From assembly GCA_963611895.1 (NCBI GenBank), contig CAVDTO010000002.1, positions 1 through 38,814 on the forward strand: DNA of 38,814 nt. The letters are read 5' to 3'. Below the pieces are notes generated by a model that was not told where the DNA came from, did no database searches, and was given only the letters and a program-made list of their open reading frames with translations. This stretch comes from a bacterium. Lineage in GTDB: Bacteria; Actinomycetota; Coriobacteriia; Coriobacteriales; Coriobacteriaceae. The number at the start of each line of letters is the position of its first letter. Position 1 is the first letter of the stretch. A program made the translations under genes and the position numbers. Positions 34,529-38,814 of the stretch are shown in pieces.

Positions 34529-35389
34529 CTATTTGAGAATCCAGTTGTCGAAGCTCATGCCGTAGCTCGCGTACTTCTCGCAGAGCTCCTTGACGGTGCC
34601 GTCGGCATAGAGCTCCTTGAGGCTTTCGTTCACGGCCTTGGCGGTCTTGGTGTCGCCCTTCTTAAAGCCGACCGCGTAGTGCTCCTCCGAGAGCGGCTTC
34701 TCGAGCTGCGTGTACGCATCGGGCTTGGCGGCAAGCTGGTAGGCCGCGATCGAGAGGTCGCAGGCCACGGCGTCGACCGCGCCCGACTCGAGCTGCATGA
34801 AGGCGGTGTTGTAGTCGCCGATGGTCTGAACGGCACCGCCCGCAAAGGTGGCGGTGAGCTTCTTCTGGTCGCCCTCGAGCACGTCCTGCGCGGCGGAGTC
34901 GGTCTGGGTCACGACCGTCTTGTCGGCAAGGCCCTTCCAGTTGGAGATGCCGCTGTCCTTCTTTACCACGATGACCTGCTCGTTGAGCATGTAGGGCTCG
35001 GAGAAGGTGTACTGGCCCTCGCGGCCCTCCTTGGTAAAGCCGTTCCAGATGCAGTTGATGGCGCCCGAGTTGAGCAGCGTGTCCTTGGCGTCCCAGTCGA
35101 TGGCCTCGAGCTTGACCTTCCAGCCCTGCTTGTCGGCAACAGCCTGGGCGAGGTCGAGGTCAAAGCCGGTGAACTCGCCGTCGTCGCCCTTAAAGCCGTA
35201 GGGCGGGTACTCCTGGTCAAAGCCCACCACGAGCTTCTTGGTCTTGGCAGCGCCCTCGACCTTCTTGGACGAGCTGGCAGCAGAGCCGGCGCTCCCGGAG
35301 CCGCCGCAGCCCGTAAGGCCGAGGCCCGCCACAGCGGCGAGGCTTCCGGCGAGTCCGATGAATCCGCGACGAGAGATGTTCGCGTTCAT
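34529..35389 (-). CDS. Amino acid ABC substrate-binding lipoprotein (family 3) with Tat signal
   Basis: SRRGFI, LTGC lipobox, GFDQEYPPYGF, IDWDAKD, IWNGFT. Confidence 0.92.
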   Translation of the reverse strand: MNANISRRGFIGLAGSLAAVAGLGLTGCGGSGSAGSAASSSKKVEGAAKTKKLVVGFDQEYPPYGFKGDDGEFTGFDLDLAQAVADKQGWKVKLEAIDWDAKDTLLNSGAINCIWNGFTKEGREGQYTFSEPYMLNEQVIVVKKDSGISNWKGLADKTVVTQTDSAAQDVLEGDQKKLTATFAGGAVQTIGDYNTAFMQLESGAVDAVACDLSIAAYQLAAKPDAYTQLEKPLSEEHYAVGFKKGDTKTAKAVNESLKELYADGTVKELCEKYASYGMSFDNWILK

Positions 35390-35580
35390 GATGTTCCTTC
35401 CCGAGTACTTTAGTTTGCTAAAGTGGCGTGTTCAACGGTCAGAATCATACACTTTAGCCAAGTGGAGTACAAGGCGCGCAACAAAGGCTTCTTATGACCG
35501 TCCGGCCCGAGAGATAGGGCGAGACCCACTGCTCGGGCAGTCCTGCTCGCCGGCGGCGGGGGCCCGTCCGGCCCGAGCGT

Positions 35581-35705
35581 CCGGAATAAAGATCTGCTGC
35601 TCGAACAGTCCTGCTCGCACGGAGAGCACATTAAGTGCTCTCCGGCTCGTGCGGAACTCGCGACAGACCTTTATTCCGGCCACTCGCGCCTACCGCGACT
35701 CGATT
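35581..35705. repeat. REP/REPIN-like structured element, left copy
   Basis: Core palindrome ggagagcac-attaa-gtgctctcc inside outer stem ccggaataaagatctg / cagacctttattccgg; 35606-35663 is the exact reverse complement of 38757-38814. Confidence 0.9.
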
Positions 35706-35790
35706 AGCAGCGGGGACCCAGCGAAGGCGTCCTACGCTTAACCGCCTACGGCCCTCGGACCAACCGCATATCACGGACAGCATCCCCCTG

Positions 35791-35828
35791 AAAAAGAGCG
35801 GCCAACCCGTTTGGATTGGCTGCTCTTT
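35791..35828 (-). terminator. Intrinsic terminator of the surface protein gene
   Basis: aaagagcagccaatcc-aaac-gggttggccgctcttt extending into a T run on the minus strand. Confidence 0.75.
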
Positions 35829-35890
35829 CTACGCTGACATGACTTCGTTCGAATGGTGGTCGCGTTTTACGTTCGCTATGGGCTATGGAA

Positions 35891-38476
35891 TTACATGGAG
35901 AAGGCGGGGACAACACTGCAGGCATTGCAGACGTGACTGACGCCCGGACGGCCGTCCGAGTTCACACCGCCGAAGAGGTAGGAGATGCCGACATACGGCG
36001 AGCGGAGCCACCAAAACGTGGAGTAGTAGCCCGCGGGACGCGAACCAGACCGCGTCTTCCACATGTCCTCGATGGCGGAGTTGACGGTGCTCCAGTCGTC
36101 CTTCGCGTTGACGCCCTTAGCCTTGAACCAGTCATACTGGGGGCCCTCGACCTTGAAGGAGCCATCGCCTATGAGCGTGTTGGCCTCGGAGCTGTCCCCG
36201 AAGACCTCGCTATTCGACAGCAGCCAGAACTTGTCGGAGGTGGCGGAGACCTTCCACTGGCCGGTGCTGTCCGAGGCGGCCGCCTTGCTCACTTCGATAG
36301 CCGCATCTTTAAGGCCGGAGAGGCCCGCCTGCACGTAGCCGTCGTCGCCGAACACCGTTTTGCGCATAGCCGACGAGGCCCAGCCGCCAGCGTTTGTCCG
36401 CTCGGAGTTCATCTGCTGGGCGGTGGGCAGCGAATGAGTCGCCGCGAAGGTCAGCGCGGAGCCGTCCTTGTCGTGGGCGCCCACCTGGATGATGCGGAAC
36501 TCGACGTACTTGTCCTTGCTGTTCGCGTCGGTCACGTCGGACCCGTTCCACTTGGTGTACAGGTGGTACTCGCCCTTCTCCATGATCTTCTCGTACTCGC
36601 CGATGACCGCCGCGTCCCCGGCTTTAATCTTGGCGACGTCGGCCTTGATCTCGGCCTCGCTCTTGTAGACGACGTCGGCCTTGGTCCCACCCTTGCCGTC
36701 AGAGACGGCGTTGTCCAAATCAGAATAGCTGGCATCCGCTGCAGCAAACCAGAAGCCGCCCAGCTCGAACTTAATGGTGAAGGACTTGGAGAGCCCGACA
36801 TCGAGCTCGGTCGGCAGCGCGTAGTTGGAGGCTGCGTCGCCCTTACTCGAAAAGCCCTCCACCGTGACGGTGTAGGCGCCGGCATCGGTCGGGGCCCCTT
36901 CCAGGCCCTCACCCTCAGACACCTTGTAGGCGTACACGGGGGCGAGCTCGTCGCTCCCGACAGCCCCGCCGATGGTTGCGGTCGGGGAATGTTTTTCGCC
37001 GTCATAGGTGTACTCGGCGTCGCCCTTGGGCTTCCAGGTCACCGTCACCGTCTTGGGGCCGATCTTGAAGTTGCCGGCGGCGTAGGAGACCTCGTAGTTG
37101 CCCTGGACGGCGTCGCCTGCCGGGACGATGGCGGCCTCGTACTCGCCGGCATCTTCCACGTCGACGTTGCTGCGGGAGACGGCGTACTCGACGAGGCCCT
37201 CGTCCTCGCCGGCCACCAGGCCGGAGACGGTCGCGGTGAAGGTCGGGTCCTTCTCGCCGTAGACCTTGGTCGCATCGTTGGCGGCGACGGAGACCTTGGC
37301 ACGCTCGACCTCGAAGCTCAAGGTCGCGGAACCCGTGTAGTTGCCCTTGAACTTCACGGTTGCCTTGGCGGTGCCGGCGTTCACGCTGTCGGAGTAGGTG
37401 ACGTCGTAGTCGGTGCCCTGCTCGAGGCCCTCGGGGACGCCCTCGACGGCGGGCTCGTGGGCCTCGCCGTCGTAGGTGAGCATGTCTTCGGCCAGCTTGA
37501 GCGCGCCCGCGTCGATCGCCTGCGGGTCGATGGTGAACTCGAGCGTCTTGAAGCCGGTGTGGCTGCCGATGCCCGTGACGGTCGCGGTCGCGGTGCCGGC
37601 GTCCACGTTGTCCCTGTACTCGACCTTGTAGTCGGTACCCTCCACCAGGCCGTCCAGGCCGGTGATGGCGGGCGTCTTGGCCTTGCCGTCGTAGGTGAAC
37701 TCGGTCGTGCTGAGCCCGACCTTGGAAAAGTCGATGGCCTTGGCGGAACCGTCGCCCTTGTCGTCGGCGTCGTCGGTCTTGCCGTCGGCTTTGTCGTCGG
37801 CGCCGCCCTTGTCGGTGTCCTTGGCGGAGTCATCGGTCACGTAACTATAGGCGACGGTGCCCACGCGGACCTTCTCGCCCTTCTTCCAGTCGGCGGGCAG
37901 CTTGGAGTTTGCGGCCCACTTGATCGTGAGCGTCTTGCCGGGCTCGACGGTCTTGCCGGCCGCGTCGCTGGTCCAGCCGCTGACGAAGCCGTAATCGGAG
38001 ACGACCTTGGCGCCCTCGAGGACGACCGCGGAGCCCGTCTCATTCTTGAGCTCCACGTCGGGAACGGAGATGCTGCCGTCGGCGTCGTAGGTCGCGGTGA
38101 TCTCGGACGTGGCGGTGAAGACACCGTTCTCGCCGCCCGCAAAGGCAAGCGACGTGCCGGCGAAAAGCGTCGCCGCGACGCCCAGGACGGCGACCGCGAG
38201 CGCGAGCGAGGACCTCATCGGCGAGCGCTTGCCCCTGAGACCGACGGCTGCCGCGACGGCGAAGAGCGCGACGCCGGCGACGGCGAGCAGCGCGGCGGAA
38301 GCCCCGTCGCCCGTCCCGGGCAGCGAGACGCCCAGGGCAGCGGCGGCCTTGCCGGGAGCCAGGTAGACGGCGGTGGCCGCCGAGTCCGTCAGCACCCCGG
38401 CCAGAGCATGGTTAACGGGCAGGGCGAGCGTCAGCGCCGCAGCGAGCACGGCCGCAGCGCAGGCCAGCGGCCTCAA
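35891..38476 (-). CDS. Large surface protein: N-terminal LPxTG plus second signal peptide, YDG/MBG-like stalk repeats, C-terminal DUF6273-like domain; natural start probably ATG 38511, out of frame through a G7 tract
   Basis: LPGTG+TM+RGKR at aa 52-84; two TYDG...GTDY...NAGTA-type repeats; MBG-like KVYGEKDP...GNY; C-terminal GGWASSAMR, DKFWLLS, WWLRSP...VVPAF. Confidence 0.85.
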   Translation of the reverse strand: MRPLACAAAVLAAALTLALPVNHALAGVLTDSAATAVYLAPGKAAAALGVSLPGTGDGASAALLAVAGVALFAVAAAVGLRGKRSPMRSSLALAVAVLGVAATLFAGTSLAFAGGENGVFTATSEITATYDADGSISVPDVELKNETGSAVVLEGAKVVSDYGFVSGWTSDAAGKTVEPGKTLTIKWAANSKLPADWKKGEKVRVGTVAYSYVTDDSAKDTDKGGADDKADGKTDDADDKGDGSAKAIDFSKVGLSTTEFTYDGKAKTPAITGLDGLVEGTDYKVEYRDNVDAGTATATVTGIGSHTGFKTLEFTIDPQAIDAGALKLAEDMLTYDGEAHEPAVEGVPEGLEQGTDYDVTYSDSVNAGTAKATVKFKGNYTGSATLSFEVERAKVSVAANDATKVYGEKDPTFTATVSGLVAGEDEGLVEYAVSRSNVDVEDAGEYEAAIVPAGDAVQGNYEVSYAAGNFKIGPKTVTVTWKPKGDAEYTYDGEKHSPTATIGGAVGSDELAPVYAYKVSEGEGLEGAPTDAGAYTVTVEGFSSKGDAASNYALPTELDVGLSKSFTIKFELGGFWFAAADASYSDLDNAVSDGKGGTKADVVYKSEAEIKADVAKIKAGDAAVIGEYEKIMEKGEYHLYTKWNGSDVTDANSKDKYVEFRIIQVGAHDKDGSALTFAATHSLPTAQQMNSERTNAGGWASSAMRKTVFGDDGYVQAGLSGLKDAAIEVSKAAASDSTGQWKVSATSDKFWLLSNSEVFGDSSEANTLIGDGSFKVEGPQYDWFKAKGVNAKDDWSTVNSAIEDMWKTRSGSRPAGYYSTFWWLRSPYVGISYLFGGVNSDGRPGVSHVCNACSVVPAFSM

Positions 38477-38478
38477 CG

Positions 38479-38485
38479 CCCCCCC
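38479..38485 (-). other. Poly-G7 tract between RBS+ATG (38511) and the main ORF; candidate translational phase-variation switch
   Basis: taaggagaaatccATG...gag ggg ggg cgt TGA; G8 or G5 would fuse this start in frame to the 861-aa ORF. Confidence 0.75.
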
Positions 38486-38592
38486 TCAAGCGTTTTCAAG
38501 ATAGATCGCATGGATTTCTCCTTACCCCTTAGCCCGGCTCCGCACGCAAACGCCGAACCCGACACGACTCGACAGAACAGTCTTAAGGTTCA

Positions 38593-38621
38593 ACTTTAAT
38601 CTATGCTGCAGGGGGGGTCAA
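38593..38621 (-). promoter_or_regulatory. Sigma70-type promoter TTGACC-N17-TAAAGT with a C7 tract running from the -35 into the spacer
   Basis: Minus strand ttgaccccccctgcagcatagattaaagt. Confidence 0.6.
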
Positions 38622-38715
38622 TAATGAGCACAAGGCCAAACGTTCAGCACAAGGCCTCAAGCAAAAAAGCCAAACATCCCAAGCAACGCCCCAACCCGAA
38701 CTACGGAATCCCAGC

Positions 38716-38814
38716 AACCGAGTCACGGTAGGCCGGAGGTCCGGAGCAAAGGTCCATCGCGAGTTCCGCACGAGCCGGAGAGCACTTAATGTGCTCTCCG
38801 TGCGAGCAGGACTG
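38716..38814. repeat. REP/REPIN-like structured element, right copy (inverted, truncated by window end)
   Basis: 58-bp exact inverted match to 35606-35663 plus a diverged extension. Confidence 0.9.

Follow-up and report, generated by a model that had tools for sequence, protein, structure and literature searches.

Organization of the adhesin locus

At the right-hand end of the 38,814-nt stretch of DNA analysed here (the window), a long open frame of 861 aa starts from a TTG on the minus strand (35891..38476) and fuses a short N-terminal unit, the mini-anchor, to an adhesin; all gene features described below lie on this strand. The source assembly is a fragmented draft (1.9 Mb in 274 contigs, 87% complete) with a GC content of 65%. 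The frame is undisrupted, with a GC3 of 0.90, and its product is a singleton among a 5.8-billion-cluster protein collection, in which its best relatives are at most 41% identical. Upstream, an AAGGAG ribosome-binding site with an ATG at 38511 (38509..38523) was read from the sequence, and a promoter-like site (38593..38621; TTGACC-17-TAAAGT, with the -35 hexamer at 38621..38616 and the -10 ending at 38593) is located 190 nt from the contig end. One such site was found, compared with 0.3 expected from shuffles; the promoter is a consensus match only. Two homopolymer runs mark this region, namely, a C7 run (38611-38617 in plus-strand numbering) that covers the last bases of the -35 hexamer and the first of the spacer, and a G7 run (38479..38485) that separates the ATG leader from the signal peptide. 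Downstream of the frame, an intrinsic terminator (35791..35820) consists of an eight-pair stem (hairpin 35820..35801) followed by a T run.

The encoded protein begins with the mini-anchor (aa 1-86; 38219..38476), followed by a second signal peptide (M87-A113; 38138..38218) and, as the first domain of the mature adhesin, an Ig-like domain (aa 114-217; 37826..38137; pLDDT 85-94). An acidic Asp/Lys/Gly-rich linker, read from the translation (aa 218-250; 37727..37825), connects this domain to a stalk of MBG-type repeats (aa 251-570; 36767..37726), which encompasses matches to MBG_3 (aa 333-393; 26.7 bits) and MBG_2 (aa 396-470; 58.2 bits), each against a gathering score of 25, and the DNA repeats D1 and D2. 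The protein ends in a head (aa 571-861; 35894..36766) that contains a DUF6273 domain. All the features that an earlier, sequence-only reading of this DNA had listed (promoter, runs, anchor module, stalk, tip, flanking repeats and terminator) are present in the sequence.

A putative sortase-linked anchor fused to the adhesin

The mini-anchor comprises a signal peptide, a TAVYLAP strand (38354-38374), an LPGTG motif (38309-38323), a membrane helix and an RGKRS tail. LPGTG, a 20-residue hydrophobic helix and RGKRS occupy aa 51-84, such that the sorting-signal region (aa 52-84 of 861) lies near the N-terminus of the frame rather than at its C-terminus, where it is found in the two-gene relatives L016 and L045. 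The LPXTG profiles score just under or below their cut-offs (NCBIfam, 15.3 bits vs 15.9; Pfam, 15.0 vs 20), and the genome holds four sortase-domain (PF04203) matches above the cut-off. All homologues in the protein collection start at the second signal peptide (10/10 at M87 in alignment A1). The adhesin genes of relatives are nevertheless accompanied by a unit of the same kind, with a signal peptide, a T(A/E)(V/I)YL strand, an LPXTG-like motif, a helix and a basic tail, which is fused to the adhesin in L026 and L015, forms a separate small gene with an ATGA overlap with the adhesin start in L016 and L045, and takes the form of a larger upstream gene in L082. T9, T14, Y17 and L18 are invariant in 4/4 rows of anchor alignment A2, which has four rows only, the relatives being 27-54% identical. 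Ahead of the junction lies a short G run in which altering a single base would convert the fusion to the two-gene form, so that the fused state in this draft is not certain.

The Ig-like domain is predicted to be the acceptor of the anchor strand. In a fold search, this domain matched beta-sandwiches of generic type only (Z up to 6.1; WxLIP, Z = 4.6), and no WxL domain hit was obtained for four such N-terminal domains at E up to 10. A model of the complex between the anchor strand and the domain reached a score of 0.65, compared with 0.00 for the best of three controls. This score was attained by 116/157 solved complexes and 2/215 mismatched pairs, counts that hold only roughly here, since the model was built from alignments of our own. 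The runs agreed in at least 63% of contacts, with a partner pLDDT of at least 52, and the predicted contacts connect D31-K43 of the anchor with domain residues 122-131 and 199-212. In the single-chain AF2 model of aa 1-222, the anchor segment remained undocked at pLDDT <50, and the docking in the complex model may stem from the predictor's general familiarity with Ig folds that are complemented by a strand. Taken as modelled, the TAVYLAP strand is predicted to be donated into the adhesin's N-terminal domain and would act as a peg that holds the adhesin to the wall.

Under such a scheme, the precursor would insert as a hairpin with both hydrophobic segments in the membrane. Sortase would cut LPGT/G and link an N-terminal peptide of about 30 residues to the wall, signal peptidase would free the adhesin by cutting after AFA113, and the first domain of the adhesin would clamp TAVYLAP between its first and last strands.

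Alternatively, the first 86 codons could be the remnant of a decayed upstream LPXTG gene, fused by accident and without docking, in which case the adhesin would be held by a membrane hairpin or released. The LPXTG scores below the curated cut-offs would fit such decay, as would the degenerate sorting motifs of two relatives (ITSKTDD and AGKTADN), the disrupted 5' end in the relative L037 and the undocked segment of the single-chain model. A remnant is harder to reconcile with the preserved order of the unit, with a strand motif conserved at the identities given above, and with the direct coupling of the unit to the adhesin start in every case, by ATGA overlap or in-frame fusion. Moreover, it is this exact strand motif that the complex model sets between the terminal strands of the domain, with a score that no control approached. 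We consider accidental fusion unlikely, although not far-fetched, and favor a functional peg.

Small strand-donating wall proteins have been proposed elsewhere. According to the available text of a recent preprint, the Elr/WxL pilus of Enterococcus faecalis has as its base subunit a small LPxTG protein, ElrB, whose predicted role is to complement an acceptor domain of Ig-like fold and to fasten that domain to the wall through sortase, and the WxL donor-strand system is reported as confined to Bacillota (bioRxiv 10.64898/2026.10.17.759780). As described there, ElrB resembles the mini-anchor in being a small protein with an N-terminal donor strand, an LPXTG motif, a membrane helix and a basic tail, with the docking in our case being model-based. 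Unlike in the Elr/WxL pilus so described, the acceptor domain here is N-terminal and gave no WxL hit in searches that allowed E values up to 10, a polymer subunit was not observed, the anchor has only about 30 mature residues and can share a single reading frame with its partner, and the host genome, in contrast to the Bacillota setting of the Elr system, has a GC content of 65%. In Bacillus subtilis, the cell-associated minor protein TapA is likewise reported, in the accessible parts of two papers, to complement the secreted beta-sandwich protein TasA by strand donation (PMC10151520, PMC9674648). Strand complementation of a secreted beta-sandwich protein by a cell-associated partner is what the two cases share, whereas TasA, in those accounts, forms fibres. 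Membership of the adhesin domain in the TasA family was not supported, the atlas giving only a 0.76 lead to Peptidase_M73.

Homopolymer runs in the promoter and leader

From the strong ATG at 38511, translation reads through the G7 run to a TGA after 12 codons, and one added G (G8) would place this ATG in the long frame. As assembled, the promoter would be spaced optimally, at 17 nt, and the strong ATG would be switched off for translation; G8 would give MRSILKTLEGGA, with the signal peptide restored. Because the assembly is a fragmented draft, the difference between G7 and G8 could represent a consensus or sequencing error. A second possible start, the TTG at 38476, lies 7 nt past a GAGG inside the run and still encodes a usable signal peptide, so that the leader run may tune expression rather than switch it.

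Runs of this kind are scarce in the genome. The whole 1.9-Mb assembly contains 18 G/C runs of at least 7 nt, two of which sit 126 nt apart in the adhesin promoter and leader, and by our own arithmetic two pairs no more than 200 nt apart were seen where about 0.03 would be expected. Each pair marks the 5' end of a gene whose product is a large secreted protein. The second of these genes, on contig C64, encodes a protein with 11 ChW repeats and NlpC/P60. A G8 run lies upstream of it and a G7 run within its 5' coding part, so that the two-run layout of the adhesin is repeated at another surface-protein gene of the same genome. The leader position of the run is also matched in four relatives, giving, with the adhesin listed first, lengths of G7, G7, G11, G10 and G11, a comparison among distant relatives that differ in GC content rather than among strains. 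The frame of the upstream ATG ends after the run in L016 (G7), is out of frame in L026 (G11) and L024 (G10), and is in frame in L060 (G11). In L045, the mini-anchor is present and the run is absent. The expression switching proposed in the sequence-only reading gains support from these relatives, whose runs occupy the corresponding place in the leader and vary in length and frame state, and from the similar layout at C64.

It appears improbable that the runs have no switching role, with constitutive production of the adhesin from either M87 or the TTG at 38476 and with runs that reflect chance, assembly error or decay. Both starts are possible, the TTG having a GAGG ahead of it and M87 a signal peptide of its own, and decay would also fit the observation that the runs of the adhesin and of three of the four relatives are out of frame for the upstream ATG. 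Yet, the genome strongly avoids homopolymers, and nonetheless two occur here and two at C64 in a like arrangement; the leader run recurs among relatives of differing GC content with differing lengths, one of them in frame; a strong AAGGAG-ATG has been retained ahead of the run; and the long frame is intact, at the high GC3 noted above. Slippage therefore remains the reading that we prefer: expression of the adhesin is likely switched by strand slippage at the promoter C7 and the leader G7.

Homopolymers at these two positions have counterparts in Neisseria, where poly-G reportedly occurs in the signal-peptide region of pilC and between the -35 and -10 of porA, that is, at one translational (leader or signal peptide) and one transcriptional (spacer) position, as in the adhesin. 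The difference is that pilC and porA are separate genes of a Gram-negative, whereas both runs here belong to one gene. In the high-GC gut Gram-positive Bifidobacterium breve UCC2003, replication slippage in intragenic G tracts is reported, in the text available, to control sortase-dependent pili (PMC9187656). The likeness extends to a 5' poly-G run in a surface-structure gene whose length sets the productive frame (PMC9187656). In comparison with that account, the locus described here has a second run in the promoter spacer and a single adhesin rather than a pilus cluster, and slippage is a prediction from the sequence.

The DUF6273 head and its variable tip

The head was modelled by AF2 at pLDDT 82.9. 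In the PDB, the head is closest to 9qa6 (E = 5.6e-6), with C-type lectins next as weak matches, and DUF6273 occupies aa 722-860 (Pfam, 39.9 bits vs a cut-off of 23.5). The available texts of three reports describe DUF6273 as a C-lectin-like DGR-target domain with a C-terminal variable region (PMC10743442, PMC11792537, bioRxiv 10.1101/2024.10.15.618418), found in tentaclins and Mtd-like proteins of gut phages (PMC10743442), in Faecalibacterium prophages (PMC11792537) and at the Toutatisvirus hotspot (bioRxiv 10.1101/2024.10.15.618418). Remote DGR targets are also on record in such accounts, one of them 17 kb from its template. The suggestion of a tip fold resembling a DGR variable region was thus well placed.

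In the adhesin, the corresponding tip segment (aa 828-854; 35915..35995) lies between the conserved WWLRSP and VVPAF motifs, varies among distant relatives and is NNY-biased, NNY making up 24 of its 27 codons, compared with 154 of 251 in the remaining parts of the head (Fisher p = 0.005). The bias extends across 19 family members (442/536 in tips vs 2603/4387) and to four-fold codons (208/274 vs 1248/2055, p = 7.6e-7, for relatives that are not independent).

A mutator acting on this tip in trans was not detected. There was no RVT_1 match in the 87%-complete source assembly, where the enzyme was not found rather than proven absent, and a permissive blastn search of 35880-36400 against all 274 contigs returned only noise over the tip, with no template-like copy; the proposed DGR locus was therefore found in neither of its parts, reverse transcriptase or template. 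Of five further genomes that encode family members, in some cases more than 12 paralogues, four likewise gave no RVT_1 match, and the fifth has a DGR-like reverse transcriptase but no second copy of its adhesin tip. Among four close relatives (six pairs), tips differ at 0-2 of 36 positions, compared with 3.1-6.8% elsewhere in the protein, with no excess variation of the kind that ongoing hypermutation was supposed to generate.

Compared with the phage DUF6273 targets of the cited accounts, the adhesin shares the Pfam domain and has an NNY-biased C-terminal stretch. It differs in being a chromosomal bacterial adhesin for which the analysis turned up neither a reverse transcriptase nor a template repeat nor an accessory gene, and in having close relatives without excess tip variation. 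The DUF6273 tip is, from sequence comparison, a C-lectin-like, putatively ligand-binding head that carries a codon-bias trace only, with no mutator found.

A genus-wide hairpin repeat flanks the gene

The adhesin gene lies between two copies of a hairpin repeat. The left copy (35570..35690) is a 121-nt hairpin between the adhesin terminator and the promoter of an ABC operon, folding at -65.5 kcal/mol (z = -6.8); the right copy (38716..38814) is inverted and cut by the contig end. Positions 35606-35679 and 38741-38814 form an inverted match of 74 nt that is 95% complementary and extends to 100 nt at 90%. At least 12 copies are present in the source genome. When 80 other genomes of the genus were examined, 78 proved to carry the repeat, most with 16-38 first-look candidates and a few with fewer than 10. 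By our own arithmetic, a repeat pair within 3.2 kb is expected in about 1/4 to 3/4 of genomes, so that the bracketing of the gene does not exceed chance given this copy number. No Rfam family matched the repeat.

ERIC, REP and Correia-type elements are dispersed palindromic repeat classes, and the repeat described here is likewise an imperfect palindrome (about 120 nt), occurs in multiple intergenic copies, is conserved across species of the genus and is a common break point of draft assemblies; it differs from them in lacking an Rfam match. The hairpins were rejected as ends of a mobile unit, given that the repeat is dispersed genus-wide and the left copy is ancestral. A comparison of the empty site beside the ABC operon, which the sequence-only reading had proposed, found the left-copy site, upstream of the ABC binding-protein gene, occupied in 6/6 relatives fetched, all without the adhesin, and the two flanking copies (90-95% alike) are no more similar to each other than unrelated copies are. 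The N-terminal 215 aa of the adhesin matched none of 144 other genomes of the genus. Judging from these comparisons, the adhesin gene is a rare accessory gene, inserted beside one pre-existing repeat copy.

These results bear on the proposed layered diversification system, in which a mobile or exchangeable inverted-repeat unit would combine two slippage switches with a tip hypermutated in trans by a remote DGR. Only its expression-switching component is supported; hypermutation in trans and repeat-mediated movement are not. The full combination is highly improbable: a documented DGR-target domain with a C-terminal variable region, the existence of remote targets, the NNY bias across the family, the placement of an accessory gene between two repeat copies, and the chance that a prophage DGR is missing from an incomplete assembly in 274 contigs speak for it, but no RVT_1 was found in the genome itself or in four of five other family-bearing genomes, no template-like tip DNA appeared even at permissive settings, the one genome with a DGR-like reverse transcriptase has no second tip copy, the tips of close relatives differ no more than the remainder of the protein, and the repeat is genus-wide, precedes the adhesin at its left site and is no closer between the flanking copies than elsewhere.

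An adhesin that may carry its own wall peg

On balance, we read the locus with moderate confidence as encoding a secreted adhesin whose stalk is made of MBG repeats and whose head contains DUF6273; its expression is likely switched by slippage, and the first 86 codons of the frame specify a predicted sortase-linked holding peptide. A more specific proposal, which we advance tentatively as a possibility, is that of a self-splitting precursor: one frame would yield both wall peg and adhesin, in fused and ATGA-coupled forms, under a double homopolymer switch and with tips that bear the codon footprint of a past DGR. If true, this precursor would correspond to the base of the enterococcal Elr pilus in a minimal form without WxL, and would do so outside Bacillota.

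That surface proteins can be phase-switched through homopolymers is long established, and in this respect the adhesin is a likely further case, from poorly studied high-GC bacteria. Sortase-linked donor-strand anchoring, by contrast, has been proposed for Bacillota WxL pili only in the October 2026 preprint, as far as its available text goes (bioRxiv 10.64898/2026.10.17.759780). A self-splitting precursor, if confirmed, would provide a second, unrelated and much smaller anchor system, with one peptide, one acceptor domain and sometimes a single precursor, making the principle general; it would explain how adhesins without a C-terminal LPXTG are retained at the wall, and would offer a compact natural peptide-domain pair. 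Finally, DUF6273 tips encoded on bacterial chromosomes show this codon bias, which suggests that there has been traffic between the DGR targets of phages and the adhesins of bacteria.

A rare accessory gene that likely encodes a phase-variable adhesin

The gene lies on the minus strand at 35891..38476, near the right end of contig C2, which the window covers in full, in a draft assembly of 1,906,326 bases in 274 contigs (87% complete, 65% GC). Its long frame comprises 861 aa counted from a TTG, within which Pfam places MBG_3 (aa 333-393), MBG_2 (aa 396-470) and DUF6273 (aa 722-860), all above cut-off. On the same strand, a terminator consisting of a hairpin and a T run (35820..35801) lies 3' of the stop codon, and upstream there is a promoter-like site, TTGACC-17 nt-TAAAGT (38621..38593), with one such site found compared to 0.3 expected from shuffles. 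In a collection of 5.8 billion clusters, the protein is a singleton, and its N-terminal 215 aa matched none of 144 other genomes of the genus, for which 144 or more species representatives exist, each of about 2 Mb. Within its own genome, there is no other DUF6273 gene, and a search for paralogues showed that the MBG repeats alone recur, on contigs C148 and C221. Judged from its sequence, the locus is a rare accessory gene that likely codes for a phase-variable adhesin. The sequence-only reading had described it as a layered diversification system, and the items it listed, namely, the homopolymer runs, flanking repeats, anchor, stalk and biased tip codons, are all present; of the proposed layers, expression switching stands, whereas hypermutation by a diversity-generating retroelement (DGR) and repeat-mediated movement do not.

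Paired homopolymer runs and expression switching

On the minus strand, a perfect AAGGAG precedes an ATG at 38511, and the frame opened by this ATG runs through a G7 run (38479-38485), located before the signal peptide, and then stops after 12 codons. Addition of one G would yield MRSILKTLEGGA joined to the signal peptide. A second run, C7 (plus-strand positions 38611-38617), covers the last bases of the -35 hexamer and the first of the promoter spacer. Only 18 G/C runs of at least 7 nt exist in the whole assembly, and these two lie 126 nt apart. Another pair, 176 nt apart, is found on contig C64 (1541-1548 and 1724-1730; locus L095), where a G8 precedes the start of a gene by about 50 nt and a G7 falls within its 5' coding part. 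The product of this gene is a secreted protein of 971 aa that combines 11 ChW repeats with an NlpC/P60 domain. By our own arithmetic, about 0.03 pairs this close are expected, compared to the two seen. Promoter contexts of the TTGAC type also contain runs ahead of genes for large secreted proteins on contigs C4 (CAP domain), C274 and C74 (DUF4012); among the runs with no role in switching, one forms a terminator loop and several lie deep within coding regions.

The relatives' adhesin genes carry poly-G at the matching position, between a strong start, about 8-12 codons upstream of the run, and the signal peptide. At locus L016, the run is G7 and the ATG frame stops directly after it, as in the gene described here; the ATG is out of frame at L026 (G11) and L024 (G10) and in frame at L060 (G11), and the adhesin leader at L045 has no run. 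The presence of two of the 18 rare runs at this locus, together with leader runs of other lengths in relatives, argues for the proposed expression switching. The leader run follows the design that is reported to have been demonstrated experimentally for the pilus genes of Bifidobacterium breve (PMC9187656). A TTG start behind GAGG inside the G7 run might bypass the leader switch.

C8-C9 and G9 runs occur between a TTGAC-type -35 and a possible -10 at C4:21284-21292, C106:6768-6775, C118:1381-1389 and C274:1576-1584, and the downstream genes include one for a CAP-domain protein of 1217 aa and one for a small secreted protein. These runs look like a set of contingency promoters.

A predicted mini-anchor encoded ahead of a second signal peptide

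The part of the locus most deserving of experiment, which the sequence-only reading had not noticed, is the first 86 codons of the frame, here termed the mini-anchor. In an alignment of homologues, 10 of 10 start at M87, which opens a normal signal peptide. Codons 1-86 specify a signal peptide, followed by a short stretch with TAVYLAP, then LPGTG, a hydrophobic helix and finally RGKRS, that is, a complete, if tiny, predicted sortase-substrate layout, in which the sortase signal scores just under curated cut-offs. Four sortase-domain matches are present in the same genome. The mini-anchor is no accident of this draft because it accompanies the relatives' adhesin genes as well: at L026, it is fused in frame and 61% identical, with TAVYLAP and LPKTGDG; in Bifidobacterium panos (L015), it is fused in frame, with LPRTG; at L016 and L045, it is a separate small gene, the stop of which overlaps the adhesin start (ATGA); and at L082, it is a larger upstream gene with a tail like the one here. 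The 5' end of a further relative, L037, is broken.

Modeling of a complex between the anchor peptide and the first domain of the adhesin gave a score of 0.65, compared to 0.00 for the best of 3 controls, and passed a mark that 116 of 157 solved complexes attain, as do 2 of 215 mismatched pairs; these counts are approximate here because our own alignments were fed to the model. The runs shared at least 63% of contacts, with a partner pLDDT of at least 52. On the anchor side, the contacts coincide with the conserved motif (D31-K43) and are tightest at V37-A40; on the domain side, they fall on its first and last strands (aa 122-131 and 199-212). In a single-chain AF2 model of aa 1-222, the anchor segment was undocked, with pLDDT below 50. 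The complex model supports a putative binding of the anchor peptide to the adhesin's first domain. This domain is, as modeled, a generic beta-sandwich: the matches of a fold search, which include MSP, PapD-like chaperone domains and WSSV envelope proteins, are all common beta-sandwich folds with Z of 6.1 at most, too low for a family to be named, and no WxL signature was found in the domain. The nearest named ESM Atlas cluster, Peptidase_M73 (0.76, compared to a best score of 0.84), was not accepted as an assignment and serves as a lead only.

Under the mechanism we propose, transcription would start at the C7-containing promoter, and translation from the strong ATG would be limited to the correct length of the leader run. 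The precursor would be exported with its two hydrophobic segments forming a hairpin; sortase would cleave LPGT/G, joining a peptide of about 30 residues to the wall, and signal peptidase would cleave after A113. The freed adhesin could then grip the wall-linked strand, such that the MBG stalk and the lectin-like head would face outward. The closest published parallel to the mini-anchor is ElrB of the enterococcal WxL pilus, a small protein which combines an N-terminal donor strand with a C-terminal LPXTG tether; its position at the pilus base is an AlphaFold prediction by its authors, who report the pilus system as confined to Bacillota (bioRxiv 10.64898/2026.10.17.759780).

The DUF6273 head and hypermutation

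According to three papers, DUF6273 is a C-lectin-like domain targeted by gut-phage DGRs, and its C-terminal end contains the variable region (PMC10743442, PMC11792537, bioRxiv 10.1101/2024.10.15.618418). A model of the head (aa 571-861; pLDDT 82.9) best matched the Thomasclavelia ramosa IgA peptidase (PDB 9qa6, E = 5.6e-6), the N-terminal domain of which is reportedly annotated as DUF6273 (PMC12402451), and behind it gave weak C-type-lectin matches. In the family, variation is high between the conserved WWLRSP and VVPAF motifs, which delimit the tip (aa 828-854 here). NNY codons make up 24 of 27 tip codons in this gene compared to 154 of 251 in the rest of the head (Fisher p 0.005). Across 19 members, which are relatives and hence not independent, the counts are 442/536 and 2603/4387 for all codons and 208/274 and 1248/2055 for four-fold codons (Fisher p 7.6e-7).

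Thus, the suggestion of a DGR-like tip holds insofar as the fold is that of a known DGR target and the codons are NNY-biased, but neither a reverse transcriptase, nor a template, nor excess variation of the tip was found. In its own genome, which is 87% complete, the reverse transcriptase profile RVT_1 had no match, and a search for a template-like copy of the adhesin 3' end returned only noise; no DGR locus was found there. RVT_1 also had no match in four of the five other genomes with family members. Among four close relatives (93-97% identical), 0-2 of the 36 tip positions differ, a level not above that of the rest of the protein. Hypermutation in trans is therefore not upheld, and in our reading the bias is a relic of ancestry or a consequence of binding-site composition rather than a sign of active mutagenesis.

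The fifth family genome, the one holding the closest mini-anchor relative, L026, carries a DGR-like reverse transcriptase on a 2.2-kb contig (L080, G044:C144:1-2245), with an LGxxxSQ motif that we take to be a DGR hallmark; its template repeat would fall outside the contig. As a mutator of the L026 tip, this element was rejected: the two share no sequence, and a genome-wide search with the tip recovered only itself. Three draft genomes (loci L017-L060) carry 12 to 17 DUF6273-tipped genes each, with very different tips, and RVT_1 had no match in any of the three.

The flanking repeat and the insertion site

The inverted arms flanking the gene (35606-35679 and 38741-38814) are 95% complementary over 74 nt and belong to a near-perfect 121-nt hairpin (-65.5 kcal/mol, z = -6.8); no Rfam family was found over 35300-38814 at E up to 1. 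This genome has at least 12 copies, three of them at contig ends. Of 80 other genomes of the genus, 78 carry the repeat, most of them with 16-38 first-look candidates. All 6 relatives that were fetched have a copy upstream of the ABC binding-protein gene, in the same position and orientation as here, and an rRNA methyltransferase gene follows 125 nt past it, with the adhesin missing. Because these adhesin-less relatives all have a copy there, the left copy is ancestral, and the adhesin came in next to it. Similarity between the two flanking copies does not exceed that between unrelated ones. Repeat-mediated movement, the remaining proposed layer, is disfavored by these observations; bracketing of the gene by chance is plausible, and recombination at the repeats is conceivable.

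In this genome, the methyltransferase neighborhood is on contig C5, at the end of which lie an ABC gene of the MacB type and another copy of the repeat. Contigs C2 and C5 probably abut: judged by synteny with relatives, C5 would follow C2, and their ends, which have no exact overlap, share 54 identical bases before a one-base difference. The ABC gene (C5:22378-25154; locus L094, 2979-5755), between the methyltransferase gene and the contig-end repeat, encodes an ABC ATPase fused to an FtsX-type permease (888 aa) and is probably part of the adhesin's insertion region because it is absent at the site in the relatives fetched.

To the left of the full left copy, there is a partial second copy (35480-35565; 35522-35550 is 83% identical to 35590-35618), and the site therefore holds a tandem remnant. 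A fragment of the hairpin is also present on contig C274. At least 5 relatives (G010, G013, G017, G022, G024) have a contig that breaks off at the position of the repeat, about 180-210 nt ahead of the ABC binding-protein gene, so that assemblies across the genus frequently break at this repeat.
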